Program-made: the position numbers and the translations under genes | DNA from: Psammoneis japonica | Taxonomy: Eukaryota | DNA length: 36,680 nt | Direction of reading: 5' to 3' | NCBI GenBank assembly: GCA_008632985.1 | Contig: QPGO01000282.1 | Span: forward strand, 1-36,680 | The notes under the pieces: model-generated | What the model saw: only the letters and a program-made list of their open reading frames with translations | Told to the model about the DNA's origin: nothing | Database searches by the model: none | In this document: one piece after another, positions 1 through 36,680 of the stretch | Layout: every line of letters begins with the position of its first letter | Numbering within the stretch: position 1 is the first letter of the stretch

Positions 1-110
1 CAACAACCATCACATCAAAAAAAGTGAGCTAGAAAAATGAGGATGACGTCAGGCGAGGAATCAGGAAAGCGTGCTGCGCGCACAGACGGGTGGGTTTCGG
101 ACAAGAAAAG

Positions 111-469
111 CAAGTGGCACCGAAAAACTCAAAAAACTGACATCATGACGGGTGGGTGAAGTAGATTTTGGCCATTTTATGAAAAAAAATGAAGTGGATT
201 TTTTGCTGAAGTCTTCTGGATTTCCACAGGCAATCTTGGTGCAGTCTGCACGTCACCCCCAAAGGTGGAAAAAGCACGAAGAACCTGTTCTGCATGGAGT
301 CTTCATTCGCGTGATGTCGCGCATGACCATCCCAGATTTTCTTGCAGTGGGAGCTCGTTTTCTGACTGACAAGTGGTTTTCAGGCAAGTGGAAGTAGATT
401 GTGTAGATTTCGAGCAATTTAGCAAAAAAACGTCATGATGTCGGAAGTTGAGTTTTTCGGTGACACTTG
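111..469. mobile_element. MITE-like element with ~40-bp imperfect TIRs
   Basis: CAAGTGGCACCGAAAAACTCAA..GACATCATGACG (111-150) versus CGTCATGATGTC..TTGAGTTTTTCGGTGACACTTG (431-469); absent from homologous sites near 17040 and 36000. Confidence 0.8.
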
Positions 470-998
470 AGATGAGAGCACAAGAATGCACCTTGAAAGC
501 AAACAACACAAGAAATGAGTGCCTGTGACTTGCCGGTGTTTCAATTTTGTCACAACGTCCACCAAGTTTGTTTCACCATCTTCCTGTCTTGACACCCGCT
601 GTGACAGCTCCCCAAAGCACATGATCGTTTGTCACACTCACGCGCTTTTGTTTTCTTGTGTTGTGCGTGGCGGGGCAGAGGGACTCCACAGAGTGTGCCA
701 ACATTTTTCGCAACTCCGCTGTCACAAAGTGCACTTGCGGGGCCCTCAACAAGCATGCAAAACATCCACAATTTGTGCTGCAATCTTTTTTTGCCATGTG
801 CGAGACAACAGCCAGCAGCTTGCTCCCAAAAAAGCAGCAGAGAGCCAACACTCTGTTCTTGCAGCGTGTTCTCTCCTCTGCTTCTCTTGCTCGGCCAAGC
901 CACAGAGGTGCGCTCTGGACATGAGTCAAAGCCCTGCTGTGTGACCTCCATGTGACCACATTTTCAGCATGATTTGTGTTGACAACAGAGCAGGTGGA

Positions 999-1248
999 GG
1001 CCTGTTCCAGCTCCAGGTGATCAGCTTTTCACCACGCGAGAGGCCAATTTTCTGCGCAACTGACTCCTTCAATTTTGATCGCTTCGAAAATCGAAAGGTG
1101 AGTGCACACCCAAAAATGCATGCAAAGTGTGCACTCACCCTTCGATTTGGCAAAAAATGGATGTGGAAAAAGTCAATTGCGCCAAATGCACAAATTTCCA
1201 AATGATGGGAATCAAACCCGCGCGGAGCACCTGGAGCTGGAACAGGCC
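999..1248. mobile_element. 250-bp fold-back MITE with 21-bp perfect TIRs and 4-bp TSD (TGGA)
   Basis: GGCCTGTTCCAGCTCCAGGTG (999-1019) and CACCTGGAGCTGGAACAGGCC (1228-1248); TGGA at 995-998 and 1249-1252; internal inverted repeats ~1088-1109/1128-1149; empty site near 36500. Confidence 0.88.
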
Positions 1249-1590
1249 TGGATGATGCTGACCAGACTTTCTTTCAACAGTTTGGTTGGTGGCATCTTTG
1301 GCAAGATGCTTTTTTCTTTCTTCTTCCCCACATCATTGCCGCAAAACTCAGCCAAACTTGCATGGTTGTTGTTGAAAGCTGACTCATCAACTGCTGTTTC
1401 CTTGATGTCACACCCTTTTTTTTGTCCTGGCACTTCTTCAAGTGTGCAAACATGCGACACAATGCACCCAAGTGAACTTTTCTGGGATTTGCTTTGCAGT
1501 GAGACAGACAAGACACCCAGCTGAAAACATGTCAGTCCTTCCAAGCTCAACTGCCAGCCTGCAAATGCCAGCCAACTGAAGACACCATGC

Positions 1591-2186: not shown

Positions 2187-4078
2187 TTCTCTGCACATGC
2201 CAGTGTGCTCAAACACATGTTTTCTGCCAGAAGCTGTGGCCCCAATGTCTGTGACATGTTTTGGTGCTTGCCAAGAATGAAGCTTGTTGACAAACAAAAT
2301 CATTGCATGCGTGCTGTCTCTGTCCACCAATCTTTAATTTTCTCACTTGTTGGCTGTGCATTCATGGAAACGTTCATTCATGAACAGCTTGATTGTGAAA
2401 CTTGTTGACAAACAAAATTGTTGCAAACATGCTGACTCTGTTCAGTTGTTGGTTGTGCATTTTTACAAATGTTAAGTCACAAATGATTTGACCATTTTTT
2501 TTGCCTGCGTGGCCCAATTCGCGGTTGGCGGACACACATTTTTTCACACCACACCACCACCACATTGACGCCAACAGCTGCAATGATGTTGACACAACCC
2601 CCATGCTTCGATGTGTGTTTGTTCAATGCATCTCCTCTCTTGCATGCCATTGCTGTCATCTCTTCATTGTAGATGTGAAAAGTGCCCCCTGTCTTGTTTG
2701 TGCTGTGTGCTTGATTTGTGGCAAGAAATGTCGGCCACACTTGTGTGGTCTCGTGCCAGCCATTTGTGACCATCGCTGACCCATGCTTTGATGTTCATTC
2801 ATCCATTTCTTTCTTTGCTCACACTTCTTTGTTCCAGTCTCTTCTTTGTGTTTTCAAAAAGATTGTTTTGTCTTGTGTTTGCTTTTGGCGGGGTCTGTGA
2901 AGAGCAAGCATCTTTCATGCCAACTGCGGCATGCGCCAAAGCCTTCTCCTGGCTTTCCCAGCTGTTGTGGCAGTGCTCTTTTCAACTGAGGCAGCGGGTG
3001 TGTTGGAAGCAAGGAACCAGGATCTCGAGCACATGTGGAGGGTGCATTTTCTTTGTCAGGTGTCCACCACCAATGTGGGGAGCGCACCTGAGACAGCAGC
3101 ATCAGCGATGACTGTAAGATCCAATGCAAGGCAATCAACAAGGCCAAAAAGCTTGGAGCTGTGGGTGCAAGAGTGGGAGGCAATGCAATGAAATGACAAG
3201 GACAGTTGAAGCAGCCAAAGAAGCTTCTAGATGCCACAAATTGAAGTGCAAGACGTTCATCAAGTGGTTTCAATGCTGTCATCAATTCGGAGAGACACCG
3301 GCCAAAGGAGTGTGATGCATGATGCCACCAATGAAAACAAGGAAGTGACAGCTTCAGACAACAGAAGAATTTGGTTGGTGTTGCCACCCCATTTTATGAA
3401 TCGATTGGTGTCCAACAGATTGGACAAACAGGAAAGATGTGTTCTTGGAAGCAAGGAGAAGGCTTGGTGCATGTGAGAAAGGCACTTGGCACTGCACCTG
3501 CTGCTGCTGGAACTGCTGCTTGGGACTGTGGTGGGGTGGTGTGTTTTCTGCCAAATTGTCAACATTGACACATGTCAGTGGAAATGCCCCACTCTTCACC
3601 CATGGAATGTTGAAGGTGCCAAACGGGGCTTGTGCTGCATGCATGCTGACACCATCTGATGCCGACGGTTGGCTCAATTGCTGCGACAATGGGTTGATGC
3701 TGCTTCTTCTTGTTTGACATTTTCTTGACTCTCCAAAGACTTTTTCAAAGGCATTTCCAGTGCTCTTTTTTCTCCATTTTGGCCTGAACCCTGACAATGA
3801 CTTTGGCAAGCACATCCCCACCCAATGCTGCAGGAAGAGAAGCACTGGGAAGAGCAGGAAGAGTTGCTCAGATTTAAACTTGCCAAGGCATGGTCTTTGC
3901 ATCTCATGAAGCAAGCAACACCACTGCTGCTTGGAAAGCCATTGCCAGATGACAGAGACTGGGAAAAATGTCTCATCTTCTTCCCTCTTGCCATCACTGC
4001 AAATGAGGACAATTGCCAGAGTTCATCAGCCACACATCCTCAGCTCCAAGGGGTTCACTCTGGTGGCAAGTTTGATGG

Positions 4079-6000
4079 CATGTCTTGCTGGTGTCTCCAG
4101 CTGGAGCAACAAACTTGCTGGGGGGGATGGTGCACCATGATGCACAGGCCAGTGCCACTTGAAAAACTAAAATGGATCATGCAGCGGTGCTCCACATCAT
4201 CATCATCACCATCAATGCACACTGGTTTGAGTTGCTGCCTGCATGACATGCACCCCAAATGCACTCAGCCTGCATTTGTTGAGTGGTTTCTTGACCCAAG
4301 TGTGGTGTCTTTGCAATCCTGATTTGGGAAGCTGCAAGCCATGTCTTGGGCAGCAGCAGCAGCCCCTTGCATGATTCCTCCACACAAGAAAATGCCCAGC
4401 TGCACAAGGTGTGAAAGCACCACACCCACAGATGTGGCAAAGGAGGTTCGCAGCATTCTTGGGATGGCATTGGAGGACTCCAGTGGATTGCAGAGGATGC
4501 AACAACAACAACAATGGTTGGGAAGCAAAGGCTTTGTCTTGTGTCCATGCAGCCCTTTGTCTCTCTGACATGACTGGGTTTCTTGGCCCAGCCGTGCCAC
4601 CTGCAAAAACAAGAAAACCATCTGTGCAACAGCGCAAGTGCTCTGTCATTTTGGGGTGGCCTTGGAAGACTTGATTGATCGGGTCCCAGAGAATGCAACA
4701 ACAACAATGGTTGGGAAGCAAAGGCCTTGTCTTGCATTGGTGCAGCACCTTGTCTCTCTGGCATGGCTGGGTTTGACCAAGCCAAGGACCTTCCTGCTGC
4801 AAGAAAGACGTGGGAAATGTCTTTGTGACAGCGCAAGCACTCCATGTTGTCTTGGGACATTTGCAAGAGACTCCATTGGGTCCTCAAGGAGGCAACAACA
4901 ACAGTGGTTGTGAAGGAAAAGCCTCATCTAGTTGTGAGTTTGAGCACATGTCTTGGTGCCTCCAGCTGGAGCAACAGGCTTGCCGAGGGGTGCACGGCAC
5001 ATGAACGGTGCACAGGCCAAGGCTGCTCAAGAAACTGAAGTGGAGCATGCAGTGGTGGTGCCCCCATGTTCCAGCAAACATTTGCCAAATGCCAAGCCAG
5101 ATCATCATCATCACATCAATGCACATTTGTTTGAGTTGCTGCCACCTGCATCATGACATGGACCCCAAAGAATGCACTCAGTCTGCATTTTTTGAGTGGG
5201 TTCTTGACCCAACTGTGGTGTCTTTGCACTCTTGATTTTGGAAGCTGCAAGCCATGTCATGGGCAGCAGCAGCAGCCCCTTGCATGATTCCTCCACACAA
5301 GAAAATGCACAGCTGCACAAGGTGTGGAGGCACCAGCCAACCTGCAAAGAGAAAAGGGAACCATCTGTGTGATGGTGCAAGCACTGCGTTGTCTTGGGAT
5401 GGCTTTTGGCAGCTCAACCTGCAAGAAAGACAAGGGAGTCATCTGTGTGACAGTGCAAGCACTCCATTGTCTCAGGATGGCTTTTGGTGGCTCAACCTGC
5501 AAGAAAAACAAGGGAGCCATCTGTGCGACAGTGCAAGCACTCAGTTGTCTGAGGGTGGGCACAAGAGACTTTGTTGGGTCCAGGAGGAGGCACAAAACAC
5601 ACGGTGGTTGGGAAGGAAAAGCCTTGTTTTTGGCCAATGCAGCCCCTTTTCTTTCTGATGTGATCAGCTTGCGTTGGTGACCAAGCCACCACACGCCCTG
5701 CAAAGGCAAGGGAGCTTTTTGTGGACAGCACAAGTGCCCAGATGTCTTTTGCTGGCCCCTTGGGTGATTCCATTGTGTCCCAGGAGAGCCAACAACAACC
5801 TTGGTTGGGGAGCAAAGGCTTGTCTTGTGTCAACAATGTGGCCCCTTTTCTTTCTGACATGACTGGGGCCTTCTTTGGCCCATCCAACACACCTGTTCAG
5901 AGACCATCGAGCCATCTGTGTGACAGCGCAAGTGACCAGTTGTCTTGGGATGGCTGTGGGAGGAGACTCCATTGGGTGCCAGGGTGTGCAACAACAATCA
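4079..6000. repeat. Degenerate nested tandem-repeat array
   Basis: ~4079-4410 recurs at ~4947-5325; CAACAACAATGGTTGGGAAGCAAAGGC-like motif near 4505, 4700, 4897, 5600 and 5790; ~78-bp unit AACCTGCAAGAAA...CATCTGTGTGACAGTGCAAGCACT near 5340, 5416 and 5494. Confidence 0.8.
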
Positions 6001-7741
6001 TGGGAACTTTGTGCCAGTGCATGAGAAGTTCAAGATTTTTGGTTGCAACAATGGCTGGAGAGTGGTGCAAGCCCACATTGGCATGGTGGGCAGCAGCTTT
6101 GTCATTGTGAAGGCAGCAGCAGTGGCGCATTGCCGGTTTGACCATCAGCCTGCGCTGCAGCAGCTCCAGCAGCAGAGCCTTGGTTTCTCTGAGGGCTCCT
6201 GCTGCTGAGCTCTTGTGGCTGAGATTGAGCTTGAGATTTGCCAGCTCAACCTGCACAGCAAGACTGTGAAAATGTGCATCTTAACAAGAGCACATTGACG
6301 TGATGAAAGCTGTGCAGCAAGACTGTGAAAATTTGCATCTTGACAAGAACACATTGGCACAATGACAGATGAGAAATTGACCGACTGCCAACACACATGC
6401 AAAACCTGCATGAATGGATGATTCATCAAATCATTTCAAATCATTCAAACCTTCAAAACTGAATGTGAGCATGGAATTTTAAAACAAAATTGTCACTTGA
6501 AAAATGATGCTGACAGGAGTCACCAGGCAGACAGACTCGACATTGCTGCAAAAACACGAACCATCATTTCCTCATGAGACACAAAGGACAAGGCTTGTCA
6601 AACATTGTGACACCAATGACATCATCAACAAGGGAAGGCAACAAAAGAGCATCAGGCGGGGGAGGACAATGCAGAACACAAGGCAAGAGAGAGGCAGGAA
6701 CTGAGTTGGTGAGTGCATGGAGCTTGGGCAACAATGCAAACAACTGATGCTTTTGCCAATTTTTCAACTCAGACATGATGTTGATGACATGCAAAGGGAG
6801 ACTGGAGGGAAGACGGCCCTGCAGTGGCCACACAAAGGTGAGCAAAGCATGTTCAAAACAATGCAAGCACAATGCTCTCATCTGTTGTGTGCTCTTTTCT
6901 CTTCTTTGCAGGCGATGCTTTGGCAAACTGGTGCAAAGCCTGAAAGAGACATGGTTGCATGCAAAGGTGAGCAGAAGTGCTGTTTTTGTCAAGACAAGCA
7001 GCCCATTCAAAAACAAAGCACACACACAGTGCTCTGATCTGTTGCAAGCTCTTTTCTCTTCTTTGCAGGCAAAGCTTTGGCAATCTGGCATGACGAGCAA
7101 AAGAGACAAGGTCACAACATGGAACAAATGACAGGATTGTGCTTGGCAAGCAAGAGCGGATGCAAGGGTCTGCAAAATGAGCAAAGCATCATGCCATCAC
7201 TGCAGCATGGGAGAGCCGGCAGGAGACAGGAGAAAGCCAAGGAGGGAAGAGCAGGAAACAGGAAGCAAGAACACATTCACTGCAGAAATGATGAAACACA
7301 GCTGGCACAATCACATTGCAAGAAACATGCAGCCAATGTACGAGCATCTTAATGCAACAAATGAATGTTGCAGTTGTCAGAAATGAACAATGTTGCAAAG
7401 CAGTTGTGGTTGCACCCTTGTCAAGAAGCTTCAATTGTGAACGAAAACTGAGCAATTTTAAAATCATTGTGGTCACAATCTTGTCAAGATTGAACAAAGA
7501 ATTAGAGTCATTTTCATTGAGTGTTAAAGCCTGCTTGGAATGTTGAAAAAATTGCCAATTTGATTTTGCACAATTGATGAGCACTTGTTGAGAACACAGG
7601 AATTCTTGACAAGAGCAAAACAAGTTCTGAACAAGAGCCACAACATTTTCCAGACAAAACCATCCAATGCTGCCAAAAGCAAAAAAGTGCAAATGCCGTC
7701 TCTTGATGCAACACTTGAACATGCAACTCTGACCAGAGCTT

Positions 7742-8113: not shown

Positions 8114-9554
8114 CAAAGCTGTGTGAGCAAGAAGCAAAGTGCAGCACACAAGCACAAGGCTGCTGTGTGGTTCTCGTGAGTGGCGGTGGTGGCAGCACAT
8201 CAAAGCTCTTGTGCAAACTGCTGAGAGAAGCAATGTTGAATTGCACAAAACAGCAAGGCTGCATGTTTTCTGTAGAAAAACAGCAGCAAGTGCAGAAAGT
8301 GTGGCGGCACACTCTCAATGGAAAAGAGCAAGACAAAGCTCACAAAGCTGTGTGAGCAAGAAGCAAAGTGCAGCACACAAGCACAAGGCTGCTGCAGTGA
8401 AAAAACAAAGTCTGACAATGAGGTTCATGCCATGGAGAAAACATTTGGCATTGAGCAACCTGCTGAAGCTGATGGCCAAGGGCCAAGTTGAGGACTTGGA
8501 AGTGTTTGGTGTGACATGGTGTGAAGCCTGTGGGAAAGCAAGAAGCTTGTGCAGGCCCCCAGCTGAGGTTTGGGAACAAGGCTTGAAAGAAATCTCCACC
8601 CAAGGAATGAACATTTGCACCCAAGCACAGGAGCAGGGTCTGGGCAATTGAGTGGTGACAGAAACTCCAGTGTTGTGGAAATTGTGAGACTGTTCTGTGC
8701 AAGCTCAAGCATTTGGTGATGAATGGCTTCTGTGCCACTCCTTCATGCAATGAGATGTGCCAATTGTGAGGCAGTCAGCTGGGTCATGATTTGCCTGTGC
8801 AAAACTCCTGTGGATGACAGCAGGCTCACAAGGTGCTTCTGCATGATCAGCTGCACCTGTGGGCCAGCCTGCAGACACAGCATGTGCTGTGCAATTCAGT
8901 GTTTTCCACTGCACAGTGGCACAAGATTGTCGTTGTTCAAACCAGCTGGTGCTGCACAATTGTTCAGGTGAACAATTCTTGATGAACACCCACCCACTCC
9001 TCAATCTCATTGACTGGAGCTGCTGATGGCATGGTTGCCAACAATCTGGGCTTGTGCCCTGGTGCTTGCGGTGCTGCTGCTGGCACCAAGAACTTTGTCA
9101 TGTGCCAAAGAGTGCAAACACCTTTGAAACATGCATCAATCTGCACAGCTGCCACTGCATGCTGGGTTGACCCAAAGTCTGGTCAACCTCACCTGCTGCC
9201 AGCCCACAAGGCCATGTGCTTTGAGACCCAGATGAAAATTTGCTCTCATGCCTTGGCCAACTGTGCAGCTGCATTCTTCCCTGGTGCTCAACAAAAGTCA
9301 CAACCCTGCTGCAATCAGAGGGAGTTTTTCTGGCAATTGAATCTGACAAACCTGTGCAGGTGAACCCAGACAATCTTCCATGGCTGGAGCTGACATTGCT
9401 GCTGAAGTTGGAGCCCTTGTTGACACTTCTTTTGGACAAAAGGAGGGAGATGTCCAAAGTGAAGGTGGTGCGGTGGCACCCCAGAACAGATCAGGGAAGG
9501 CAAGAACCCAAATGTGGTTGGCTGTCAAAAGATCACACATCATTTGGGTGGAAG

Positions 9555-9885
9555 ACACTTTCTTCTTGACTGTGACATGGAGTCAAGAGCCTCCATCACA
9601 TCATGGGCAATGGCAAGAATTTCACAGCCAATGTGGAAATGGTGGAACAGACACAGGTGCATGCCAACATTGTGACAGCTTTGGTGCAAAACCTGAATGC
9701 TCGTGAAGTGCGGTTGATGAGATTGCAGCGCTGTTTGTCCAATGGATTCATCCTGTCAATTGCTGAGTGTGCTGATGCCATGGGCTTGAGCAAGAGCAGG
9801 GCGCAGCTTTTGGTTGGCGGCAAGATGGTTAAAGAAGTTGTGTGAGGCACACGATGCATCCAGTTTCCAAGAGCATCTCTTGATG
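9555..9885 (+). pseudogene. Sigma-70 factor C-terminal fragment (regions 3.2-4; probably nuclear-encoded plastid sigma), copy A
   Basis: IVTALVQNLNAREVRLMRLQRCLSNGFILSIAECADAMGLSKSRAQ.L..RWLKKLCEA fits region 4 (LxxRExxxxRLRYGL..G..RSxxExAxxMGLSxxRVxQ....LKKLR). Confidence 0.75.
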
Positions 9886-10664
9886 ATCGCCTAAACAGGA
9901 TGTACAATGCAGAAGCTAACGTGTCATTGGAACCAGAGTAGATGCATTGAGCTTGACCGTGCCTGAACTTTGCCTCTAATCCTGTCAGCACACAAATCGT
10001 CACCACCCCGACAGCACTGACATGGAGCTTGAGCGCCTTCTCTCCGTTCCCTGTCTGCTCATGGGGTTTGGTCGATTCCGACCACCAAACCATCTGTGCA
10101 ACAATTGGGTTTCTCTCGGGCTTTACAACCCCGCTGGTTGGAGAGCAGACGTGTGTCTCCAACAAAATTACAGTGGGTGTGACCGCATTTCCAGACCTTG
10201 ACAGGGAATGAGAGGAGCTCGGTCAAATGGGACGAAAAGCAACAGGTTGACGCATCCCCAGTGTGTCTGGGATGGCCAGTCCCTTCCAATTGAGACATGT
10301 GGTGTGCTGGTGCAGTGGTGGGGATTCCTTCGTGCCGTGCCTTGACCAGTTGTTCACCCTGCAACCACTGCAGATTTTCTCGATGCCTTTGACGCGTTTC
10401 TGTTTTGCTGGCAATTTTCGAAGCTCTCTGCCGTCGTCCGCATGGGTGAATGATGAAACGCAGTCACAATGAAGCGCAGTCATTCATTGGCATTTTGGCA
10501 TGCGCCAGGGCATCTGACCACAGTGATGTTAAAAATGACACACGGACACCGCACACATCTAGAGCCTCCTTCTCTAGTGCAAATCTCGTTCTGTGCATAC
10601 GAGCCATCACCACCACTCCGACACACTTCTTGATTTCCTGCCTCGGGCATTGTGTGTCTCCGAC

Positions 10665-15035: not shown

Positions 15036-15039
15036 AAAT

Positions 15040-16570: not shown

Positions 16571-16584
16571 GCCCGACCGCACTG

Positions 16585-23700: not shown

Positions 23701-26294
23701 CCCCGGACATCAGCCCATTGCTTCGCTTTCACTGGTGGGAACCCATGTGCTTCCACCTCGATGACTCCGATTGGCCGTCCGAATCCCGTGAGTTGCGTGG
23801 ACGCTTCGTTGGCATTGCTGAGCACGTCGGCCACCAAATGACCTTCAAAAATTCTATCTGACGAGACTCAGAAGATCCTCTGCCGGTCCAACGTCCGCTC
23901 CGCCACCCCCGATCCTGCCGTTCGAAACCTGCGTCTTGATCCTCCTGATGGGGAGCCACCTGAACCCATCATCAAATCTCGCCATGACGACAACCCCGTC
24001 GATTCTCCTGATGGGGAGATCAGGACACCCAAGATTCCAGTTTTTTGATCCGCAAGACATCATTGGACGTGCCTTCCTCATGCAGCCACAAGAGGACGGA
24101 CAACGCCACAGAGCTCGCATCGTCAAGGCCGTCGAAGACCACGAATGGAAAGTGAACGGCAATCCCGAGCTCACTAAGTTCGTCTGCTCTGTCAACAATG
24201 ACGAATACGAGGAAGTCCTTGCCTGCAATGACATCATGAATCACATTGAGCAAGAAGACGAAGACACCACTGTTTGGAAATTTCGACGCATCGTGTCACA
24301 CGAAGGACCTCTGAAGCCTCACGACCCAACCTGGAAAGGCTCCAGCTACAACATCATGCTTGAATGGGAAAGTGGGGAGATCACGTCCGAGCCTCTTGCC
24401 ATCATCGCCAAGGACGACCCCGTCACCTGTGCCATCCATGCACGAGAGAACGGACTCCTCGACACGGATGGCTGGAAGCGGTTCCGCACCATCGCGAGGC
24501 GCCAAAAGAAGCTGTTTCGCATGGCCAACCAAGCCAAGCTTCGCTCCTTCCGCACTGCACCTCGCTGCAAGCATGGGTGCGAAGTTCCCCAGAACTACAA
24601 ACACGCCATGTCACCAGACAAACGCAACGGCAACCGCAAGTGGGGAGACGCAACTAATCTCGAGATGGACCAACTCGACGAATACGAAGTCTTCCATGAC
24701 TGCGGGCCCTTCAAGTCTTCCACTCCTCCTGCGGGACACAAGAAGATCCGAGTGCACCTGGTGTGCGACGTGAAACACGACGGTCGCCACAAGGCACGAC
24801 TCGTAGCCGACGGGCACCTCACAGACGTACCTGTCGACAGTGTCTGCTCCGGAGTAGTCTCCCTCCGTGGCCTTCGGCTGATGATTTTCCTGGCCGAACT
24901 CAACGAGTTGGAGACATGGGCCACCGACATTGGCAATGCCCACCTTGAAGCCACCACCAAGGAGAAGCTTTACATTGCAGCTGGACCCGAGTTCGGCAAA
25001 CTCGAAGGACACATCCTTGTCATCCACAAGGCACTGCATGGACTGCGCAGCTCCGGTCTCCGCTGGCACGAGCGCTTCGCCGACTGCCTGCGAGCTGAAG
25101 GCTTCTTCCCCTGCCGCGCCGAACCCGACATTTGGATGCGCAGGAATGGCGACCACTGTGAACACATTGCCGTTTATGTGGATGACCTCGCCATTGCCAT
25201 GAAGGACCCTCAATCTTTCGTCGACACTCTCACGGAAAAGCACAAGTTCAAGCTCAAGGGCACGGGACCCATTGAGTTCCATCTGGGTTGCGACTTTTCC
25301 CGGGAACCCGACGGAACCTTGTGCCTGTCTCCGCGCAAGCACATCGAGCGCATGGTCGACAGCTGTGCCCGACTGTTTGGGGAGAAACCTGCCACCAACG
25401 CCCTGTCACCTCTAGAGAAGGGTGACCACCCCGAACTGGACACTTCCGAACTGCTGGGACCTGATGGCATTCGCAAGTTCCAGTCTCTTGTTGGTTCACT
25501 CCAATGGGCAGCATCCCTTGGTCGAATTGACATCACCACGGCCGTCATGTCACTCTCTAGCTTCTGAGCTGCGCCCCGTCAAGGCCACTTGGATCGTGCC
25601 AAACGCGTCTGTGGGCACCTCTCCAAGATGCGACACGGTGCTCTCCGCGTTCACACGGAAGAGCCCGACCATTCGGATCTCCCTGCTCCGGCCTGTGAAT
25701 GGATGCATTCCATGTGTGGTGAAGCAGAAGAGATGATCCCAAAGGACGCTCCACCGCCCCTTGGCAAGTTCGTCACTGCCACCCACTACGTCGATGCAAA
25801 CTTGTGCCATTGCATGCTCACCGGACGCTCTGTCATGGGAATGCTCCACTTCCTCAACAAATTCCCGGCTGATTGGTTCTCTAAGAAACAAGCCACCGTG
25901 GAGACTGCGACCCACGGGTCTGAATTTGTTGCCGCAAGGACTTGTGTTGAGCAGATCATCGACCTGCGCATCACCCTGCGCTGCCTTGGCGTCCTGATCC
26001 GCAACGTTAGTTACATGTTCGGTGACAACAAGTCGGTTGTAGACAGTGCCACCATCCCACACTCCAAGTTACACAAGCGACACACCGCACTGTCGTTCCA
26101 CCGTGTGCATGAGGCAATTGCCTCTGGTCACCTTGAGCTCCACTTCATCGAAGGCTCCCGCAACCCTGCTGACATTCTCAGCAAGCATTGGGGTTGCTCC
26201 CAAATCTGGGACCTTCTCCGCCCCCTCATGTTCTGGAACTTCATTCCATCCGAAGTCGAATCTGTTTCTGTGGCTCCTCAAGCAAACTGGGGAG
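20718..26294 (+). pseudogene. gag-pol polyprotein (Gag, aspartic protease, integrase, RT, RNase H), disrupted
   Basis: Gag FKRGIKRDP; PR ALVDRGANGG; IN ATDT...GDRAQVE...QNFAERR; RT HKARLVADGH, DIGNA, YVDDL (25175); RH YVDANL, GSEF, GDNKSV, NPADILSK. Frameshifts near 23850 and ~24010, in-frame TGA at 25565 (probably from CGA), and pervasive Tyr->Cys/His. Confidence 0.95.
26289..26294 (+). other. Polypurine tract (short)
   Basis: GGGGAG directly upstream of the 3' LTR TG. Confidence 0.7.
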
Positions 26295-26570
26295 TGACAG
26301 GATTTGAACAGGATTTGGGTGCGCGCGAAGTGTCGCGCGCTGTTTAGTTCACCGCGCACAGTTTTGTGTGCTTTAGTTCCGCGCGTTCACGCGCAATGTG
26401 GTTTGCTTTCGAGCCACAAGGCTCACAAGAATGATGACAGCAGCCCGATCACACCGACTCACACGTCTTTCGGCTCCTGTGACGGTCTCTGAACGGAGAC
26501 TCATCTGCCATTTAGACAGCAGTGAGGAGCCATTGTTTGAATTCTTGCCATTTGCCTTCAATTTGCAACA
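26295..26570 (+). repeat. 3' LTR
   Basis: TGACAGGATTTGAACAGG...TTTGCAACA; preceded by a purine run and followed by the TSD CCCCT. Confidence 0.96.
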
Positions 26571-27734
26571 CCCCTCTTGGCAAACACACATTTTTGCACT
26601 TGCACAGGGCAACATTCCTGCAACCTGCACAGGAATGGGGTCCAACCACTCAGGCAGTGACATGTGAGTTCAGTGCCATGGAAGTTGCAAGACCACTCTG
26701 TGCACAACTCACATGCATGGGGCAGCAAAACATGCTGCAGAGCTTGAGTCCACATTTGACACTGTGCATCTTCTGCAAAGCCACCCCTTTGTGCAAGATG
26801 TGCCAATTGCAGGATGAACAGCTGGGTCATGACTTTCCTGCATGAAACTCATGTGTGCAACAACAGGCTTGCAAGGTGCTTCTGCATTGTGATCAGCTGA
26901 TCCTGCGGGCCAGTCTGCAGACATGCAGAATGGCAGCCTTGCTGCATGCAATCCAGGGTTGCTTGCTGAACAGTGGCTCAAGATCATTGCTGTCCAAACC
27001 AGCAGCTGGCACCATGCAATGTTTTCAGGCAAACTGTTCTTGGTGAACACTCATCCACTCCATTTTGTCAGCTGGAGCTGCTGACAGCATGGCTGCCAAG
27101 AACAACCTGGGCTTGTGCCCTGATGCCTGTGGTGCTGCTGGCACCAATTTTGTCACATCCAAGCAGTGCAAACCTTTGAAAGATGTGCCAATCTGCACAG
27201 CTGCTGCTGTGTGGGTTGACCCAAAGTTGGGTCAACCTCACCTGCTGCCAGCCCGCAAGCAGGCCATGCACTTTGAGGGCTGGATGAAAAAATTGCTCTT
27301 GTGCCCCAGCAGCTGCACCCAAGTGGGTTGGAACTGTTCATGGCACACCTTGCCAGTTTGACAGGAGCAGGAATGCTCCTCACCCAGCTGTGCTCTTCCC
27401 TGGTGCTCAACAAAAGTCACAAACCTGCTGAAACCAGAGGTCACAACCCTGCTGCAACCAGAGGGAGTTTTGCTGGCATTTGAATCTGACAAATCTGCTC
27501 AGGTGGATCTGAACAACCTGCCATGAGTGGAGCTGATGTTGCTGCTAAAGTGGGGGGGCTTGTCGATGCTTCTTTTGGACAAAAGGAGGGAGATGTCCAA
27601 AGCAAAGGTGGCATGGAATGAGGAGGACAATGGTGGCACCCCAGAACAGATCAGGGAAGGCAAGAACCCAAATGCGGCAGGCTGTCAGAAGCTCAAATGT
27701 CATTTGGGTGGAAGAAATCATGGTCGCCAACTTC

Positions 27735-28070
27735 AAAATGAAGCAAGCCTTGTCACTTGACTGTGACACAGAGTCAGGGGCCTCCATCATGGGCAATGAC
27801 AAGAACCTCACAGCCGATGTGGAAATGATGGAACAGACACAGGTGCAAGCTGATGTTGTGGTGGCTTTGGCACAAAACCTGGATGCTCGTGAAGTGCGGT
27901 CAATGAGGTTGCAACACTGTTTGTCTGATGGATTTATCCGGTCAATTGCTGAGTGTGCCGGTGCCATGGGCTTGGGCGAGTTGTGCACAGCACTCAGTTG
28001 GCGGCAAGATGTTTGAAGAAGTTGTGCCATGAGGCACACGTTGCATCCAGTTTCCAAGAGCATCTCTTGA
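27735..28070 (+). pseudogene. Sigma-70 factor C-terminal fragment, copy B
   Basis: KQALSLD...ADVVVALAQNLDAREVRSMRLQHCLSDGFIRSIAECAGAMGL. Confidence 0.75.
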
Positions 28071-28939
28071 TGATTGCCCAGACAGGATGTGCAACACAGA
28101 AGCCAACATGACATCAGAGCCAGAATGGATGCACTGAGCTTGACCGTGCCTGCTGAACTTCACCTCCAATCCTGTCAGCACACACATCGTCTCCTCCCCA
28201 ACAGCACTGGGGTTTGGTTGATTCCAACCACCAAACCATCTGTGCAATGACCAGGCTTCTCATGGGCTTTACAACCCCACTGGTTGGAGAGTGGATGTGT
28301 GTTTCCAACAAAATTGAAGCAGGTGTGACCACATTTCCAGACACTGACGGGAAATGAGAGGAGCTTGGTCAAATCGGATGAGAAAAGCAACAGGTCAACA
28401 CATCCCCATCACACCTGGGATGGCCAGTCCCTTCCAATTGAGGCATGTGGTGGGAATCCCTTCATGCCGTGCCTCAACCAATTCATCCGCAACCACTGCA
28501 GATTTTCTTGACTCCACTGAATCGCTTCTTTTTTGCTGACAATTTCGAAGCTCTGTGCCGTCATCCATTTGGGTGAATGACAAAGCGCACTGCTCATTCA
28601 TTGACATTTCAGCCTGTGCTGCGGCATCTAACCACAGCGAAGTTCCCAACACATGGACACCACAAACATCCAGTGCCTCCTTCTCCAGCAAATCTTGTTC
28701 TCCTCTGCATGCGAGCCACTCCCGCTGCCCCAACACCCTTCTTGATTTCCTGCCTTGGATGTTGCACATCTCCTGATTTCCAACAACAAACAATGTCTCT
28801 TCAAACTGATCAGTTTGCTTGTGCAAGAAAGCATGCAGTGAGTTGGTTTAAGACAAGCCTGATGTCACCGAGCAATGCCAAGACAGAAGCACGCCACCGA
28901 ACAAATGAAATTTTCTCATGCACTTGCTGATTCCAACGC

Positions 28940-29550
28940 CAGACAGAATGCTTCACAGTGGCAACACTTTGAAAGTTGCTCCAGTCAGAAATGTAAAAAT
29001 GAATCACCAAGTCATTTGTGGACAGGAGTGCCAGTTGATTTGAGTCCCTGTGCTTCATTGGCATCTCATCACACTTTCTTGCAACCAAAGACTTCAGCTC
29101 TCCTGCCTCTTCTAAGGATCTCTGCTTGGCGCATTTGGCAAGATGCACAAATCCAACGTTCCAAGCAATGAAGACAGACTCTGGGCAAGGTGCAATCAAA
29201 GTTGCATCTCCTCCAAGATTGGAAAATGTGCAGCAACATTCAGCTCCTTTGGCACTGCATTCTTTGTTCGTTTCCTCAACATTTTGATCTAAACTGCTCT
29301 CAATGTGATGGTTCTCGACCGTGTCGTCACCGCTGCTTGTTGTGTCCCAGCCACCATCCCTCCTGCAGCCTGCCCAATTGTTGCTTTCAGCATCCCAATT
29401 GATTTCCATCCAAAATCTTTGTGCACATCATCACTGCAACTGGCAGATCCAAACAGATGTTCAGAAAAGGTTTCGGGGTCAGCCTCAGCTGCACTCTCTA
29501 GATCAAGAGACGGGCCCAGGGCAAACTCAGCTGGAATGAATCTGCACTTC
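28940..29550 (-). pseudogene. Fragment resembling DUF6940-type proteins (family name from memory), copy B only
   Basis: EF..ADPETFSEHL..TFSNLGGDATLIAPCP..HLA..LST..HF*LEQLSK(CC)H(C), compared with the recalled motif FxNLGGDAxLxxP..HLA..LST..LHxRLDxxPKYY. Confidence 0.5.
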
Positions 29551-29569
29551 CTCTGCACTTGAAAATTGA

Positions 29570-30380
29570 AAGCAAGAAAATGGGCTGTGATGCCTTGATG
29601 ACTCTGCCCATTCTGCAGCGGATGGCTCAGACCCCAAATGCAATGGAAAGAAGAATCAATGTGGCCGAAAGGGCAAATCCAAAGCCACGCAGTGCCCTGT
29701 TCAGGTGCTGCAGCTGCAATCCACCTGGACCTTTGAGTGGAGGCAGAGACACCTCATGTTGGTTGTTCCATTGCAAGAGACACGGGGTCAAACTGCACCA
29801 CGTTCCCATCTCGAAAAATGTCTGTCCGAACAGCACCAAAGGCGACATTTCCGGTTTCTGGGTCTTTTCGTTCCACAAAGTTGAGCAACCGGTGCAATGC
29901 ACAGTGGTCAAATCATGAGACCCTGTCATTGGGTCAATGACAGCAGAATCCGAAGAATCCACAAAGCTTTGCATTGACAGCATGCTCGCAATGGGAGACG
30001 CCGTCAAAGCAAGTGAGACGTCGCGCAAGCAGCCAGCCCATGGAGATTGTGGAACCATGTGCAGAAAGATCCCCAGATCTGGAGACTTGAATGTTCTTTT
30101 GACTGGAAGCTGATCTCCACGTGATCTGGATGGTTCTGAAGCTCTTGCATGCTCGAAACCATTGCACGCAGATCGCAAGAGTTCCTGGCATCCTGGCTCT
30201 GGACAAAGAGCACGGAACTTGTGTGTTCTACGAGCCACCTTGCACAGGACGCAGGTCATCTGAGAAAAAACCAGACACAGTCATTTCCAGTGATCCCCTG
30301 GCAATTGTAAAGCAAGGGTGTCAGGTGGTTTTGCTGAGAGAGAGATTCCGGACCGTAGCAGCAAAGTGTTGACCATGGTC
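29570..30380 (-). pseudogene. Class C GPCR fragment, copy B (truncated at TM2)
   Basis: Aligns to ~11195-11985; more degraded than copy A. Confidence 0.8.
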
Positions 30381-30827
30381 TTGTGTGGTGCGGTTGGGCG
30401 CTGGCAGGTGGTGCGGCACAGCACGTGCGAAAAAGCGATCAATCGAACAGAAGAAAAAATTTTGTCCATCACCAGCCCCACAACAAACAAAAATGACTGT
30501 CATGTGCGTGTCAACGGAAAGCACGACACAGATTTGTTGCCTTGCAAACTTATGGCGAAGTCGCATCAGGAGCAAACGAGCAAAGAAAAAGCGGCTGTGG
30601 CCATGACGATGAAGATTGTAGCGGCATTCCGAGTTTGGATTCGAGATGATTACTTGGATCAAACCCAGCACCGGTTTAAATTGTGTCAAAACCAACTTGC
30701 CACTTCGCGGACACGATTCCCTACACGCGAAAATCTGAAATGCGCAAGCACGCACTTTCCCACGCACTCTTCGTCCCACAATCGCAGTTCTGGCAAGAAA
30801 GTAAAGTGTCGCATCAACAATGTCACC

Positions 30828-32063
30828 ATGTTGTGCGCTTTCCTCTTCTTGAACGCTTTGTTTCTCATTGGCAACTATGGCCGAGCCATTTCTTGCCTGC
30901 GTGGGGATCCTAAAGAGTTCCTGGCAGGCGCGGTGCTCTGCTTCGTCTTGTGTTGCTTGTTGAGGAACATCGACGTCTGGATCGTCGTCCGAACCTTTGT
31001 GGTTGCATTTCTCCTCTGGCTCTGTACGATCCTTGCTACGGCATTGTCCAAGCAGACAAGGTGGAATTGTTCTGAATTTAACCAGCCTCCCCACGTTCCT
31101 CGCAGCCACTTTGTGGAGGCGCAACGCAAGACGCATCGTTGCGACGTCAATGAGCCATTTGCATCGTAAGTTTTTGTTGCTCTTGTTGTGCTGCCCATTG
31201 TTGTGACGCTTGTTTCTAACGTCACCTTCTTTCTTTGATGTTCCATTTCTTGTGTTCAGCTCTGCTGACGGCACTGGTTCCAACAGTGGAGTGGCTCACG
31301 AGCCGTCTTCAAACTACAACCCCCCACCCCTCCGTCGATTTTAAAGAAAAAGACAACGTCAAAGCTTCATCCCCCAAGCCGAGCCTTCCAAAGTACCGCC
31401 ACAACGTCAAACCAGAAAAAGACAACGTCCAAGCTTCACCTGTCAAGCCGAGCCCTCCAAAGCACCAGTGCAAAGTCGGTGAGAGAGTTTTGTACACGAA
31501 TGGCAATGCCAACGACGTCGCTTCCGCCAAGATCATTGGCACTCACCTTGATGACAAAACTCTGCACTACACTGTCCTCTTCTCTAACAACAGAGAGAGG
31601 CAGACGGTTGAAAAGAATCTATCGCCCATCCCAAAAACACCAACGTCAGAAAAAGACGACATCGAAGCATCGCCTCCCAAGCCGAGCCCTCCAAAGCACC
31701 AGTGCAAAATCGGCGAGAACGTCATGTGCACGAAAAACAATACGAACGATGTCACTTCTGCCAAAATCATCAGTGTTCACCGCGACGACAAAACTCCGCA
31801 CTACACTGTCCTCTTCTCCAACGGCAGAGAGCGACAGACAGAAGAAAAGAATCTATCTCCCGCCCCCCAAAAAACCGACGTCCAAGTACGAGAAGGGCCA
31901 AGACGTGCATTGCTGCCGCAACAACGCTCGTGCATTGGCCAAGATTCTCAGGGTGCACTTTGATGATGATCTCGTGGCGCATTGCGACATTAAATGTGTG
32001 GATGGGAGCGAGAGGCAGACGATTGACAAGTGCCTGGAGGAACATCCGTCTCCCGAGTTGTGG
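30828..32063 (+). pseudogene. Same TM plus 3x Tudor/SH3-like gene, copy B
   Basis: ATG at 30828; intron 31166-31259 (94 nt); inferred ancestral TAG at 32061 now reads TGG; frameshifts in C-runs near 31325 and 31865. Confidence 0.8.
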
Positions 32064-34014
32064 GGAGTGCGACGAGGCTGAGTTTTTTGCTGTTGCGGGT
32101 GGAGAAGATTGTCTGTGATTGCACATCTTATTTTTCATTCAGGCCTGCATTGTCGTGAAGACGTGTTGGGCAGAAATTATTTCAGATGTCAGCTTGTGGT
32201 GCGCATTCACTTGTCATTTTGATGCTCGAGTTCAACTGCAGCAGCAAAGTTGGAAGAGGCTTTCCAGATCTCGCATTCAGGCACGCATTGTCAAGACGAC
32301 ACATGTGAGTTGGCCGCCGTTTCGGAACTGGTTTTGTGTGCCGGCAGAAGAGAATGCAAGATCTGGTTTGCCTCTGAAAGCTAATGTTGAACAGCAGCAA
32401 CACTTGTTCCAATGTTCAAGTCGAAAACCATTGTGGGACTGGCGGAATCGAATGAGAAAACGAGAAACAAACATCAGACGGGCTTTTTGCGTGCAAGGTA
32501 GAAGCTCACGGATTGTCAGGTTTAGTGTGGCAGGCATGGGGTGTGGGAGTGGGGCTGGGGCTCGAGAGGGATCAGTTAGCGCGCTGTAGAGCATTGGGCC
32601 TGCAGATCAAGATTATGAAAACAAAACAAAAATTAGAAAACGCATTGTCAGAACATCTCTTTTGCACTTTTGAAAACTCGCTTTCACATTGTCCCACTTG
32701 CAATCATCCGCTGTCAGTGCAAGTGAGGCAATTGGGGACCATTGCTGAGTGCAAGGTCATTGGTTGAGAGCGTCTGCTTTGTCCAAAGATTGCCGCACAG
32801 GTTGCGACCATCAGCATCAAGCATCTCATGCACTGCACGAATCCACCAGGCCCGCTTCTGGCTTGGTCGGCAATCTCAAGGGCGGTCTCCACCAGAATGT
32901 CAAGGATCTTTGCATTGTCAAGGACCCAACAAAGGACAAAAAGCATCCCAAGTAGCTCGGGGGCCGGTTGCAGATCATTTTGTGCCGAGGAGGACGCGTC
33001 CGTGAAGGTGTTGCTTGAATCGGAACAGGTGGTGCTGCACATCTCATTCGACACTTTGCCCACGCTTGTCCATTGTCGCCTTGTGCTGATGCTGTCAACG
33101 ATGCAGCCACATGCCACTTTGTTCAAAGATTGCCACATGCCGCAGGTTGCGACCATCAGCACGAAGCATCTCCTGTGCCGCACAAATCCACCAGGCCCGG
33201 TTCAGGCTTGAACGGCAATCTCAAGGGCGGCCTCCACCAGAACATTGGGAACTTCGCATCGTCAAGGACCCGACAAAGGATAAAAAGCATCCCAAGCATC
33301 TCGCGTTCGGTTACAAATCACTTGGTGCCGAGGAGGACGGGTCCATGGAGGTGTTGCTTGCATCGGCACGGGCAATGCTGCACACTTCACTCGACACTTT
33401 GCCGACGCCTGTCCATTGGCGCCTTGTGGGGCTCGAGAGGGATTGGTTGGCGTGCTGCAGAGCATCAGGCCTGCAGATCAAGATTATGAAAACAAAACAA
33501 AAATTAGAAAACGCATTGTCAGAACATCTCTTTTGCACTTTTGAAAACTCGCTTTCACATCGTCCCACTTGTGTCATCCGCTGTCAGTGCAAGTGAGGCA
33601 ATTGAGGCTGTTGTTGAGTGCAAGGTCATTGGTTGAGAGCATCCACTTTGTCCAAAGATTGCCGCACAGGTTGCGACCATCAGCACCAAGCATCTCATGT
33701 GCCGCACGAATCCACCAGGTCCGCTTCTTGCTTGGTCGGCAATCTCAAGGGCGGTCTCCACCAGAATGTCAAGGATCTTCGCATCGTCAAGGACCCGACA
33801 AAGGATAAAAAGTATCCCAAGTAGCTCGCGGGCGAAGATCCATCTGAAATAGAATCCGCGACTGCTGTTGTGGAAGATGTGTTTGTCCAAGGTCGTGCTC
33901 AGCAACAAGGGGTTTGGTTGAACACGGGCGCCGCATTAAAGCAAAATCGTGCCAGACTACCCACAACCCATGACGACAAAAAGAATGGCAATTGGAAAAC
34001 TTTTGACGGAAAAG

Positions 34015-34885
34015 AGGGTCGCAGATTTCTTTCTGTGTCTTGATGCGCCACAATTGTTTGGGTGGAGGCGAACATGATGGCTTCTTGTCGCCATGTGTGC
34101 CAGTTTGTGGCTGCATCGGAGTTGAAGCAGTTTCTGACTTGGAAATAAGTTTTGCAAAGTACTTGGATGATTTTGTGCTGAACAACGACGAGCAGCGTGC
34201 AACAATGAACAAGCACATGCGTCCGTTCAATGAAAAAGCATCAAATGCAAAGAATGACACGTGCCCTTCGCCAAGCATGCGCACTGTCTGGAATGGGATC
34301 AATTGTTTCACAAATTCGCCTCAGCCAATCGTGTTCACAACCGTGAGGTAGTGTGGACAATCCGAGGAACAGTTCTGCCGCCACGTGTCCCAAGGACCAC
34401 ATGTAAACAGCGGAATCGCAGGGTAGCCGTAGAGTGGAAGAACTTCCGGGCTGCGGTAAAACCGAAATTGAATGTAGCTGTGAGCCGTGTTTCCTTCACA
34501 GCAAGCCGAACCGAAAGCAATTAACTTGACATTGCTTGAATCAAACCACTTCTCGGTCGAACAATTGATCGCTGACACAATTCCTTCACGCCACCGTCCA
34601 TTGTTTTCATGAGCAGCGGCCGAACCTTTGTCAAGGGCAACCCTCTGAACTGCCGCTGATTCAAAACCTCTCATGCATTCATCCACAACAATTCAAACAC
34701 CAAGCACAGGTGATTCTGATGCGGACTGTACGATTGCAGGTGCACTGTCTTGCGGTTTTCGCTTTGACGTCAATGGCCAAGAAATCCTTGTCTTTGCTCA
34801 GTGCCCAAAGACATTGATCTCCACAGCTGCTTGTTGTGCACAAGCTTGACCATTCTTCACCACTTTCAGGGCTGCAAAGACTTCC
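34015..34885 (-). pseudogene. DYRK/YAK1-like kinase fragment, copy B
   Basis: ALKVVKNGQACAQQAAVEINVF; NVKLIAFGSACCEGNTAHSYIQFRFYRSPEVL. Confidence 0.9.
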
Positions 34886-34954
34886 AAGACAAGCAGGGAG
34901 CGAGTTGAGATGCGCATGTGCCACTCTAGCACGGCTCTTTGAGCCATGAACGTA

Positions 34955-35530
34955 CCTTTCCACCGCCTGGCAGACCAGTTCCCTGCGCAAGGCGTCTGCA
35001 TGCTTTTCGTGCACCAACAAGTAATCAGGAGCCACGCGCTAAGTTTTGATTGCAAAAACAGAAATGGAAATGAGTTCCACAGCAGCAGTTCAAAATCAAC
35101 AGGAACAGCATTTTCAAATTCCAAAACTCCATTTACATGACCTTTGTCCCACATAGAAAGTTTTGCCCCAATGATGCGTTCCTCGGCTCAATCTTTAAAA
35201 GAGAGAAAAGAGCAGTTGGCAAGATTAACACGTTGGGTAATTCCGCCACTTTCACGCGCAACATGCAGCATGCTTGCCCTTCCAACTTCCAACACGTTCC
35301 GATCCGGCAAACAAAATGGTTCATTTCCCTTTTCCAAGAGCATCTCTGTTCTTCCACGCCCCCTTGAACAACTGTTTAACAAAGAAGAGGGAAAACAGGA
35401 AGCGTCAGAAGAACGAGCTCCTCCTCAAGACACACAATGCACACACGTGCGCATCTGCCAGGGGGTGCATGCACATGCCTTGCAAGACTCCTGGATCAAA
35501 ACAGTGTGTCACCAATTCTTGCAGGAGTGC
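34955..35530 (-). pseudogene. ALDH3-like fragment, copy B
   Basis: APDYLLVHEKHADALRREL, FAGSERVG, LLQELVTHCFDPG; splice donors mutated to GC. Confidence 0.82.
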
Positions 35531-36680
35531 CAAGAGCGCCCGACCGCACTGCGTCTCTCCTCCCAGAGTCGGTCTGACATCTTTCAGCTCTTGAATCTCC
35601 ACCACACTTTTGTGCATGCGAGGAAAGGCGCTTCTGGCAATGACAGCAGCACCGGAAGCACCAAAAAACCAAATGAAAAAGGACGTCCGGGAGGCTTCCA
35701 AAGCCTCGGAAATGATTAGGGCAGTGGTGGTTCCATCCGGAATTGCTTCAAGCCGCGACTTTGTGAAAGCAATTCGTGGGTCTCCATTGTCGCTCGGACA
35801 AAGGAGTGAACTGTGCAGGTCACGATCAGCACAACAAGAAATGTGAGAAGGCGCCTCATGGTGAACGGGACGGGACACGGGACCGCCGCAACATGCCGGG
35901 TCCAACCATCACATCAAAAAAAGTGAGCAAGAAAAATGAGGATGCGACGTCCGGAATCAGGAAAGCGTGCTGCGTGCAGACGGGTGGGTTTCGGACAAAG
36001 CACAAAGAATGGCGAACAACAAAGAAATGAGTGCTTGTGACTCACCGGTGTTTCAATTTTGTCACAATGTCTGCCAAGTTTGTTTCACCATCTTCCTGTC
36101 ATGACACCCGCTTAGACAGCTTCCCAAACCACACGACCGTTTGTCACACTCATGCCCTTTTGTTTCTTGTGTTGTGTGTGGCAGGGCAGAGGGACTCCAC
36201 AGAATGTGCCAGCATTTGTTGCAACTCCGCTGCCACAAAGTGCACTTGCAGGACCCTCAACAAGCATGCCAAACATCCACAATTTGTGCTCCAATCTTTT
36301 TTTGCCATGTGCAACACAACAACCAGTTTGCTCCCAGAAAAGCAACAGCCAAGACACTCTGTTCGCGGTGTTTTCTCTCTGCTTCTCTTGCTGGGCCAAT
36401 CCACAGAGGTGCGCTCTGGACATGAGTCAAAGCCCTGCTGTGTGACCTCCATGTGACCTCATTTTCAGCATGATTTTTTGTGTGGTTGACAACAGAGTGG
36501 GCAGATGATGCTGACCAGACTTTCTTTCAGCCAGCTTGGTTGGGGGCATCTTTGGCGGGATGCTTTCTTCTTTCTTCTTCCCCACGTCATTTTGCCGCAA
36601 AGCTCAGCCCAACTTGCGTGGTTGTTGTTGAAAGCTGACTCATCAAGTGCTGGTTGCTTGAGATCACACCCTTTTTTTGT

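Follow-up and report, generated by a model that had tools for sequence, protein, structure and literature searches.

Near-complete loss of TpA across a repeat-only region of Psammoneis japonica points to a probable TpA to TpG/CpA hypermutation process

The stretch of DNA analysed here, which will be referred to as the window, comprises the 36,680 nucleotides of Psammoneis japonica contig QPGO01000282.1 (assembly GCA_008632985.1, positions 1 to 36,680, forward strand), in which the dinucleotide TA (TpA) is strongly depleted from end to end. The recognisable content of the window consists of repeats only, above all a Copia-type long terminal repeat (LTR) retrotransposon and the copies of a repeat of approximately 9 kb. 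A Pfam search of the 149 stop-to-stop open reading frames (ORFs) of at least 100 amino acids yielded solely RVT_2, DUF6940 and weak Tudor/DUF1918-like matches; no single-copy host gene was recognisable among these ORFs, and their matches included no deaminase and no polymerase besides the reverse transcriptase (RT). Searching 44 window ORFs against PHROGs gave no match, scanning the window for Rfam families and tRNAs (including rRNA) revealed none, and no close relatives were found in the viral contigs searched. The sequence is a scaffold with two runs of N at positions 1591-2186 (596) and 7742-8113 (372). The features are listed below in order of position, with O/E denoting the ratio of observed to expected dinucleotide counts.

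1..36680, no strand: TA-depleted domain; O/E of TA 0.13, TG 1.68, CA 1.59
4..1422 and 35903..36678, at the window ends: partial third copy of the ~9-kb repeat
2187..7741, no strand: old tract; TA O/E 0.045, CpG O/E 0.19
8734..17200, + strand: ~9-kb repeat, copy A; main part 10647-17200 with TA O/E 0.19 and CpG O/E 0.82, 5' part far more decayed
17201..19493, no strand: old tract; TA O/E 0.033, CpG O/E 0.17; sharp end at the Copia insertion
19489..19493 (left) and 26571..26575 (right), + strand: target-site duplication CCCCT, exact 5-bp match
19494..26570, + strand: Copia-type LTR retrotransposon, dead copy; TA O/E 0.20, CpG O/E 0.90, GC 56%
19494..19769, + strand: 5' LTR, 276 bp, starting with TG and ending with CA
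20601..23858, + strand: polyprotein frame, N-terminal part; aligns to residues ~1-1100 of full-length relatives
23990..26347, + strand: polyprotein frame, RT/RNase H part; Pfam RVT_2
26295..26570, + strand: 3' LTR, 93.8% identity to the 5' LTR; 17 differences, all transitions
26571..29568, no strand: old tract, containing 26571-28780; TA O/E 0.048, CpG O/E 0.21
26780..36154, + strand: ~9-kb repeat, copy B; main part 29569-36154 with TA O/E 0.17 and CpG O/E 0.79

The whole window contains 265 TA dinucleotides, compared to a mean of 2154 (sd 34, minimum 2074) obtained over 200 mononucleotide shuffles. The O/E of AA and TT is 1.28 and 1.30, respectively, and TA O/E does not exceed 0.31 in any 1-kb bin. 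In the most extreme tracts (2187-7741, 8170-10646, 17201-19493 and 26571-29568) TA O/E falls to 0.03-0.09 and CpG O/E to 0.17-0.29. The original prediction, made from the letters of the window, had described TA as nearly absent over long tracts, and counting bore this out: 4 TA were detected in 26571-28780, where 130.9 (about 131) are expected. Over the six frames the stop triplets TAA and TAG occur 189 and 142 times, TGA 1478 times; as the rarity of TA makes TAA and TAG rare, the long ORFs of the window are mostly spurious. Within the old, nearly TA-free tract 2187-7741, a 78-bp tandem repeat (2.9 copies) was observed at 5334-5558.

The element at 19494-26570 carries everything by which a Ty1/Copia retrotransposon is recognised, namely an LTR pair, a target-site duplication and a polyprotein with RVT_2 (Pfam E = 1.4e-25). 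Over its full length, the polyprotein frame can be aligned with polyproteins of approximately 1900 amino acids found in relatives on metagenome contigs. The frame is broken by two frame changes near 23850-23990 and by one in-frame TGA at 25565-25567, and the original TAG stop of the polyprotein is still present at 26345-26347. When 8000 candidates were scored in a protein search with the RT frame, 1707 of them proved to be relatives at E ≤ 0.001, and the 120 top-ranking ones (47-72% identity) were taken further; a metagenome scan provided 79 Copia-related loci with DNA.

The direction of change was read from conserved codons. Three unmended pieces of the polyprotein frame were aligned to 38 full-length relatives, and a column was regarded as conserved if at least 70% of the relatives share the same residue. 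At the 40 conserved tyrosine (Tyr) columns the window retained Tyr in only 8 and carries cysteine (Cys) in 15, histidine (His) in 14, phenylalanine in 2 and tryptophan in 1, i.e. 29 of the 32 changes lead to Cys or His. In contrast, 657 of the 751 conserved non-Tyr columns (87.5%) were retained (Tyr versus non-Tyr, Fisher p = 2e-20). The respective analysis based on hidden Markov models showed Tyr retained in 7 of 39 columns with Cys in 15 and His in 14, and the RT part alone retained 5 of 18 with Cys in 5 and His in 6. Cys (TGY) and His (CAY) are exactly the products that TAY yields after a change of TA to TG or of TA to CA, and their ratio of 15:14 indicates that the coding strand is not favoured. 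TA has become TG or CA about equally on both strands; in the original prediction, too, the Tyr codons had been read as A changing to G on either strand. Further replacements are compatible with a TA spanning a codon border or with CTA to CCA. Some changes in the same frame fit ordinary CpG decay, among them 7 of the 12 replacements of arginine (Arg), namely those by Cys, His or Gln. The single in-frame stop is a comparable case: a stop codon had originally been counted among the TA-derived sites, but the TGA at 25565-25567 aligns with Arg in 36 of 38 relatives and consequently points to CGA to TGA, i.e. to CpG decay, and this particular argument was not reproduced.

The LTRs of one insertion are identical at the time of integration and thus record what happened to the element afterwards. 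Of the 17 transitions that now separate the two LTRs, 13 trace to TA sites, in agreement with the earlier reading of this pair. Five adjacent doubles show CA facing TG, three sites show TA facing TG or CA, and at two sites CpG faces TpG or CpA. A TG-facing-CA double is the expected remnant of an ancestral TA (or CG) that was hit on a different strand in each copy; since CpG runs are intact in these LTRs, TA is the likely ancestor. Both LTRs bear products of both strands, which argues against an editing of RNA or of one cDNA strand prior to integration.

The copies of the ~9-kb repeat provide a second and larger comparison. Identity reaches about 91% between their main parts in a global alignment (89% by BLAST) and 78-83% between the 5' parts. 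Between the main parts, TA is present in both copies at 35 sites and faces TG or CA at 54 sites; of the 59 partners of a TA that changed, 54 are TG (30) or CA (24). TG-facing-CA doubles were found 71 times, compared to 2-5 for each other adjacent double transition, and CpG is kept at 240 sites and faces CpA at 72. Assuming that double losses in the same direction are as frequent as those in opposite directions, we estimate for the repeat at the time of its duplication a content of at least about 231 TA in 5.8 kb, corresponding to an O/E of ~0.65, of which each copy has since lost approximately 73%. A single-rate model predicts about 10 doubles instead of the 71 seen, which indicates that sites differ in mutability. 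Judged from both the LTRs and the repeat copies, the change took place in DNA after its integration or duplication. With respect to duplication as a trigger, the TA loss postdates duplication or integration, yet tracts that are single-copy within the window are equally depleted.

Within the ~9-kb repeat, which looks like a single unit, the 5' part (8170-10646 versus 26571-29568) is far more diverged than the main part (10647-17200 versus 29569-36154) at all kinds of sites, with differing shares of 0.14 versus 0.05 for AA facing AG and of 0.62 versus 0.13 for CpG. The CpG and TA content switches sharply near 9750-10000 and 29500-29750. The diverged 5' part may represent either an older element or a stretch that mutates faster.

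The specificity of the change was evaluated on all sites at which one or both of the main-part copies carry an A. The share of such sites that differ between the copies was 0.44 for TA, 0.08 for CA, 0.05 for AA and 0.04 for GA. It had been proposed as a check that A to G should be enriched at TA over other NA contexts, and a share of 0.44 against 0.04-0.08 speaks clearly for such an enrichment; the process is specific to TA and not directed at NA in general. A/G differences outside TA and CpG amount to 4-5% between the repeat copies, and about 4 background differences were found in 276 bp between the LTRs. As an order of magnitude, the rate at TA would exceed that of the remaining transitions in this DNA approximately 50-200-fold.

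The relatives of the Copia element served as controls. All 79 metagenomic loci showed a TA O/E of 0.33-1.02, compared to 0.20 for the element in the window. Across 199 other relatives (the 79 loci and the best 120 proteins) conserved Tyr was retained with a median share of 0.89, and only three of them fell below 0.6 with Cys or His instead: P0114 (Tyr kept in 3 of 25 columns, Cys 9, His 10), L020 (1-2363; 7 of 22, Cys 4, His 10) and P0051 (11 of 25, Cys 8, His 5). For L020, nine relatives with 76-81% nucleotide identity were used as reference. Its private changes affected TA (to TG) at 27 of 67 sites, AA at 13 of 127, CA at 22 of 170 and GA at 7 of 165, whereas TA to TG amounted to 0-10% in five control relatives examined by the same procedure. 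The three cases indicate that the TpA signature exists in independently assembled environmental DNA. Relatives close to these three (e.g., L001-L009) do not carry this signature of Tyr to Cys/His and TA to TG/CA changes. Three further relatives, L045, L049 and L011, combine a CpG O/E of 0.23-0.24 with an only moderately low TA O/E (0.41-0.50) and look like methylation decay without TA hypermutation.

The distribution of products along the DNA bears on how the strands are attacked. Processive single-strand deaminases leave strand-coordinated clusters. Runs tests on five repeat alignments yielded 29, 17, 15, 17 and 9 runs of TG and CA, where 22.2, 15.0, 15.1, 13.5 and 10.5, respectively, were expected. 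As no excess clustering was detected, neighbouring TA sites were hit independently, and strand-coordinated (processive) editing was ruled out by these tests.

To obtain a view of the neighbouring bases, TA survival in the window was compared with the TA contexts of 76 control loci (the 79 less the three lowest in TA), a baseline that consists of other elements and not of the ancestor of the window sequence. The survival values relative to these controls are as follows, by context.

ATAT: 0.006
ATAC/GTAT: 0.036
ATAG/CTAT: 0.053
ATAA/TTAT: 0.116
GTAC: 0.134
CTAG: 0.179
CTAC/GTAG: 0.191
GTAA/TTAC: 0.203
CTAA/TTAG: 0.329
TTAA: 0.441

An additive per-strand model in which the base 3' of the edited A ranks T >> C ~ G > A fits the mixed contexts reasonably. 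In 63 events with TA kept in one copy, the 3' base on the edited versus the unedited strand was C in 30/15, A in 14/27, T in 8/5 and G in 11/16. The change rates in L020 were 15 of 30 for TAC, 8 of 23 for TAT, 2 of 8 for TAG and 2 of 6 for TAA. What can safely be stated from these comparisons is that a 3' pyrimidine is favoured and a 3' A disfavoured.

Loss of TA and loss of CpG coincide in part of the window. The tracts with the lowest TA are also those with the lowest CpG, and in a 250-bp table the shift at the two ends of the Copia insertion is sharp. In the young Copia element and in the main parts of the repeat copies about 80% of TA has been lost while CpG O/E is still 0.79-0.90, which indicates that the TA process outpaces CpG decay and proceeds independently of it; in the old tracts, age is sufficient to account for the joint loss. 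Decay of 5-methylcytosine yields the same products TG and CA and has clearly affected the oldest tracts as well (CpG O/E 0.17-0.29), but is unable to remove TA.

Apart from the features described so far, little was recognised in the window. No transposase or RT domain was detected by Pfam on the ORFs of the ~9-kb repeat, which shows only weak Tudor/DUF1918-like matches, located in a 234-bp tandem duplication (13015-13485 and 31413-31861). An exhaustive search with the ORF at 31220-31960 retrieved 24 weak matches (best E = 5.7e-10); Pfam on 10 of these 24 relatives gave weak Tudor-like, DUF7141 or DUF1918 matches for five, ankyrin repeats for one and nothing for four. The ORF at 28813-29427 on the minus strand matches DUF6940 with 34.5 bits (gathering cut-off 27), and a word-indexed protein search with it found no homologue. 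A homologue search with the ORF at 30294-31166 remained without a match.

In Bigelowiella natans, viral DNA inserted into the genome has been reported to undergo TpA to TpG/CpA hypermutation (Mettrop et al., bioRxiv 10.64898/2026.01.13.699255, 2026-04-14), and a full-text literature search identified this preprint as the sole matching description. The original prediction had named no published description, which the preprint supersedes. According to the preprint, 231 of 302 nuclear single-nucleotide mutations in mutation-accumulation lines were located in two viral inserts, one from a giant virus (186 kb) and one from a virophage (25 kb); among these 231, A to G or T to C accounted for 230, all on TpA as stated by the authors. 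The rate in the inserts was ~6e-7 per site per generation versus 3.5e-10 elsewhere, and only part of the lines was affected. The preprint also reports 124 genomic clusters of 1-kb windows depleted in TpA and enriched in CpA and TpG, as well as an enrichment of RT and DDE domains in the TpA-depleted coding sequences, and it proposes an ADAT2-like protein as deaminase while leaving the enzyme unknown (bioRxiv 10.64898/2026.01.13.699255). Both systems share a change that is nearly only A:T to G:C, occurs only at TpA and results in TG or CA depending on the strand, and in both a regional depletion of TA is accompanied by a gain of CA and TG. In contrast, the process in B. natans is active on a giant-virus insert that is single copy (Rho TpA 0.45) and on a virophage insert, whereas the targets in the window comprise an LTR retrotransposon plus further repeats, and their depletion is much deeper (0.03-0.20 over 36.7 kb). 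The evidence from the window is also evolutionary (LTR pair, paralogous copies and Tyr codons) and does not consist of de novo mutations.

Other hypermutation systems resemble the pattern in part. Repeat-induced point mutation (RIP) of fungi, which changes C:G to T:A mostly at CpA and thereby creates TpA (PMC2621366), is likewise a dinucleotide-specific transition hypermutation that disables repeated DNA on chromosomal copies. The direction in the window is reversed (TA to TG/CA), and RIP was rejected because there is no TpA excess (O/E of TA 0.13, CA 1.59, TG 1.68). APOBEC3 converts C to U on minus-strand cDNA before integration, which is seen as strand-biased G to A. A resemblance would lie in the hypermutation of retroelements by a deaminase that prefers certain neighbouring bases; editing of the APOBEC type was rejected since the change in the window is A:T to G:C, strand-symmetric and took place after integration. 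Hyper-editing of double-stranded RNA by ADAR shares the A to G change and the preference for a 5' U or T that is reported for ADAR (bioRxiv 10.64898/2026.01.13.699255). ADAR acts on RNA, so that a genomic trace needs reverse transcription and is fixed before integration, whereas both strands are affected in both LTRs, the Tyr to Cys:His ratio is 15:14, and the paralogous copies diverged after duplication; editing of the ADAR type was rejected on these grounds. The earlier conclusion that RIP, CpG decay, APOBEC and ADAR acting on the transcript strand all fail to explain the pattern is upheld by the direction of change, its symmetry and its timing after integration.

We consider it likely that a targeted TpA to TpG/CpA process of the same kind as in B. 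natans produced the TA loss in the window. Such a TpA-specific mutation process would convert A:T to G:C in this repeat-only region and would act on chromosomal DNA after elements had integrated or been duplicated. Either strand of a TA would be hit independently, giving TG or CA, and the older tracts would be near saturation for TA loss. Direction, TA specificity, strand symmetry, post-integration timing and the lack of strand-coordinated runs are the parts of this proposal that the comparisons between copies, codons and LTRs show. The process would be aimed at silenced, foreign or repeated DNA and not at the whole genome. It is possible that regions are selected by duplication, silencing or foreign origin, and a RIP-like dependence on homology would not be the default, as the main target in B. 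natans is single copy according to the preprint. As to the chemistry, a TadA/ADAT2-like enzyme that deaminates adenine to hypoxanthine would be a conceivable agent, for which we put the chances somewhat below even. In tRNA, the A34 deaminated by ADAT always follows U33, and this would explain why an ADAT-like enzyme requires T before A. The mechanism originally proposed survives in part: a process at the level of DNA that acts on TpA on both strands is retained, whereas the suggested participation of Pol eta is unlikely, as AA is spared (0.05 versus 0.44 for TA). The statement that no enzyme for the process is encoded in the window agrees with the Pfam search of the 149 ORFs, which found no deaminase.

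Several observations weigh against this interpretation. No single-copy gene was recognisable among the 149 ORFs of the window, which leaves a small probability to a genome-wide TA bias that selection corrects in genes. No deaminase was found in the window, and sequence alone cannot separate deamination of A from a lesion of the T on the opposite strand. In the alignment of 11198-14702 with 29569-33101, TG and CA alternate beyond chance (29 runs versus 22.2). The 3'-neighbour preference is inconsistent, too: survival ranks the targets TAT >> TAC ~ TAG > TAA, while the 63 events favour a 3' C.

The same targeted TpA process might also run on another chemistry, either by a thymine lesion or modification that pairs with G or by error-prone patch synthesis by Pol eta, which we regard as unlikely but not as negligible. 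The Pol eta motif WA predicts AA to AG as well, whereas AA facing AG differs at 0.05 compared to 0.44 for TA, AA O/E is 1.28, and in L020 AA to AG was found at 13 of 127 sites versus 27 of 67 for TA to TG. TET/JBP-type enzymes could oxidise T to 5-hydroxymethyl- or 5-formyluracil, which mispair with G. T to C at TpA on one strand is A to G at TpA on the other, and the counts presented here cannot separate the two; nor does the window encode an enzyme that would decide for either. Nothing here counts against a T lesion, and adenine is favoured only by the analogy to U33-A34 and by the candidate named in the preprint. A different explanation would be a genome-wide context bias against TpA, with genes keeping TA through selection and without any targeting of repeats. 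Every 1-kb bin is indeed TA-poor (maximum O/E 0.31) and a single-copy control is not recognisable in the window. Nevertheless, we consider such a bias improbable, because a rate at TA that exceeds the other transitions by a factor of at least 50-200 would place a heavy load on every Tyr codon, because the ~9-kb repeat still had an estimated TA O/E of ~0.65 at its duplication, and because in B. natans the rate outside hypermutable regions is reported to be ordinary (bioRxiv 10.64898/2026.01.13.699255).

Editing of an RNA or cDNA intermediate during retrotransposition, either ADAR-like or by a deaminase on minus-strand cDNA, would let copies arrive already mutated. It would suit a retrotransposon as the best-resolved target and the preference of ADAR for a 5' U, as reported in bioRxiv 10.64898/2026.01.13.699255. 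This is very improbable in view of the LTRs, each of which has TG and CA products, with opposite products at five sites, of the Tyr columns without strand bias (15 to Cys, 14 to His), and of the ~9-kb repeat, the copies of which lack a retroelement domain and diverged independently at TA. Least probable of all is an artefact of sequencing or assembly, such as the misreading of a modified base at TpA, which might be suspected in a scaffold with two N runs (596 and 372). The changes behave like inherited substitutions, as they are fixed, codon-consistent and different between paralogous copies, and the same signature is found in three independently assembled environmental sequences. Moreover, the changes in B. 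natans were called as de novo mutations from Illumina reads of mutation-accumulation lines, according to the preprint (bioRxiv 10.64898/2026.01.13.699255).

With the targeted TpA process as the preferred explanation, the window represents a further case of a recently described, mechanistically unsolved phenomenon and is not categorically new. To our knowledge, no cellular system was known until 2026 that mutates chromosomal A:T to G:C at one specific dinucleotide. New here is that an LTR retrotransposon and further repeats are disabled by the TpA signature, which comes close to saturation in them, that action after integration and independent hits on the strands can be read from the DNA itself, and that a first rough view of the preference for neighbouring bases is obtained. 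With a probability somewhat below even, the window represents a marine protist lineage other than that of B. natans, and TpA hypermutation would then be a widespread transposon-directed defence; it would push retrotransposons and further repeats to near-complete TA loss once they had integrated, and would still be visible in environmental DNA, in which 3 of 199 relatives of this Copia lineage carry the signature. A natural DNA adenine deaminase, should the enzyme prove to be one, would form a counterpart of APOBEC-type defence and of the engineered adenine base editors.

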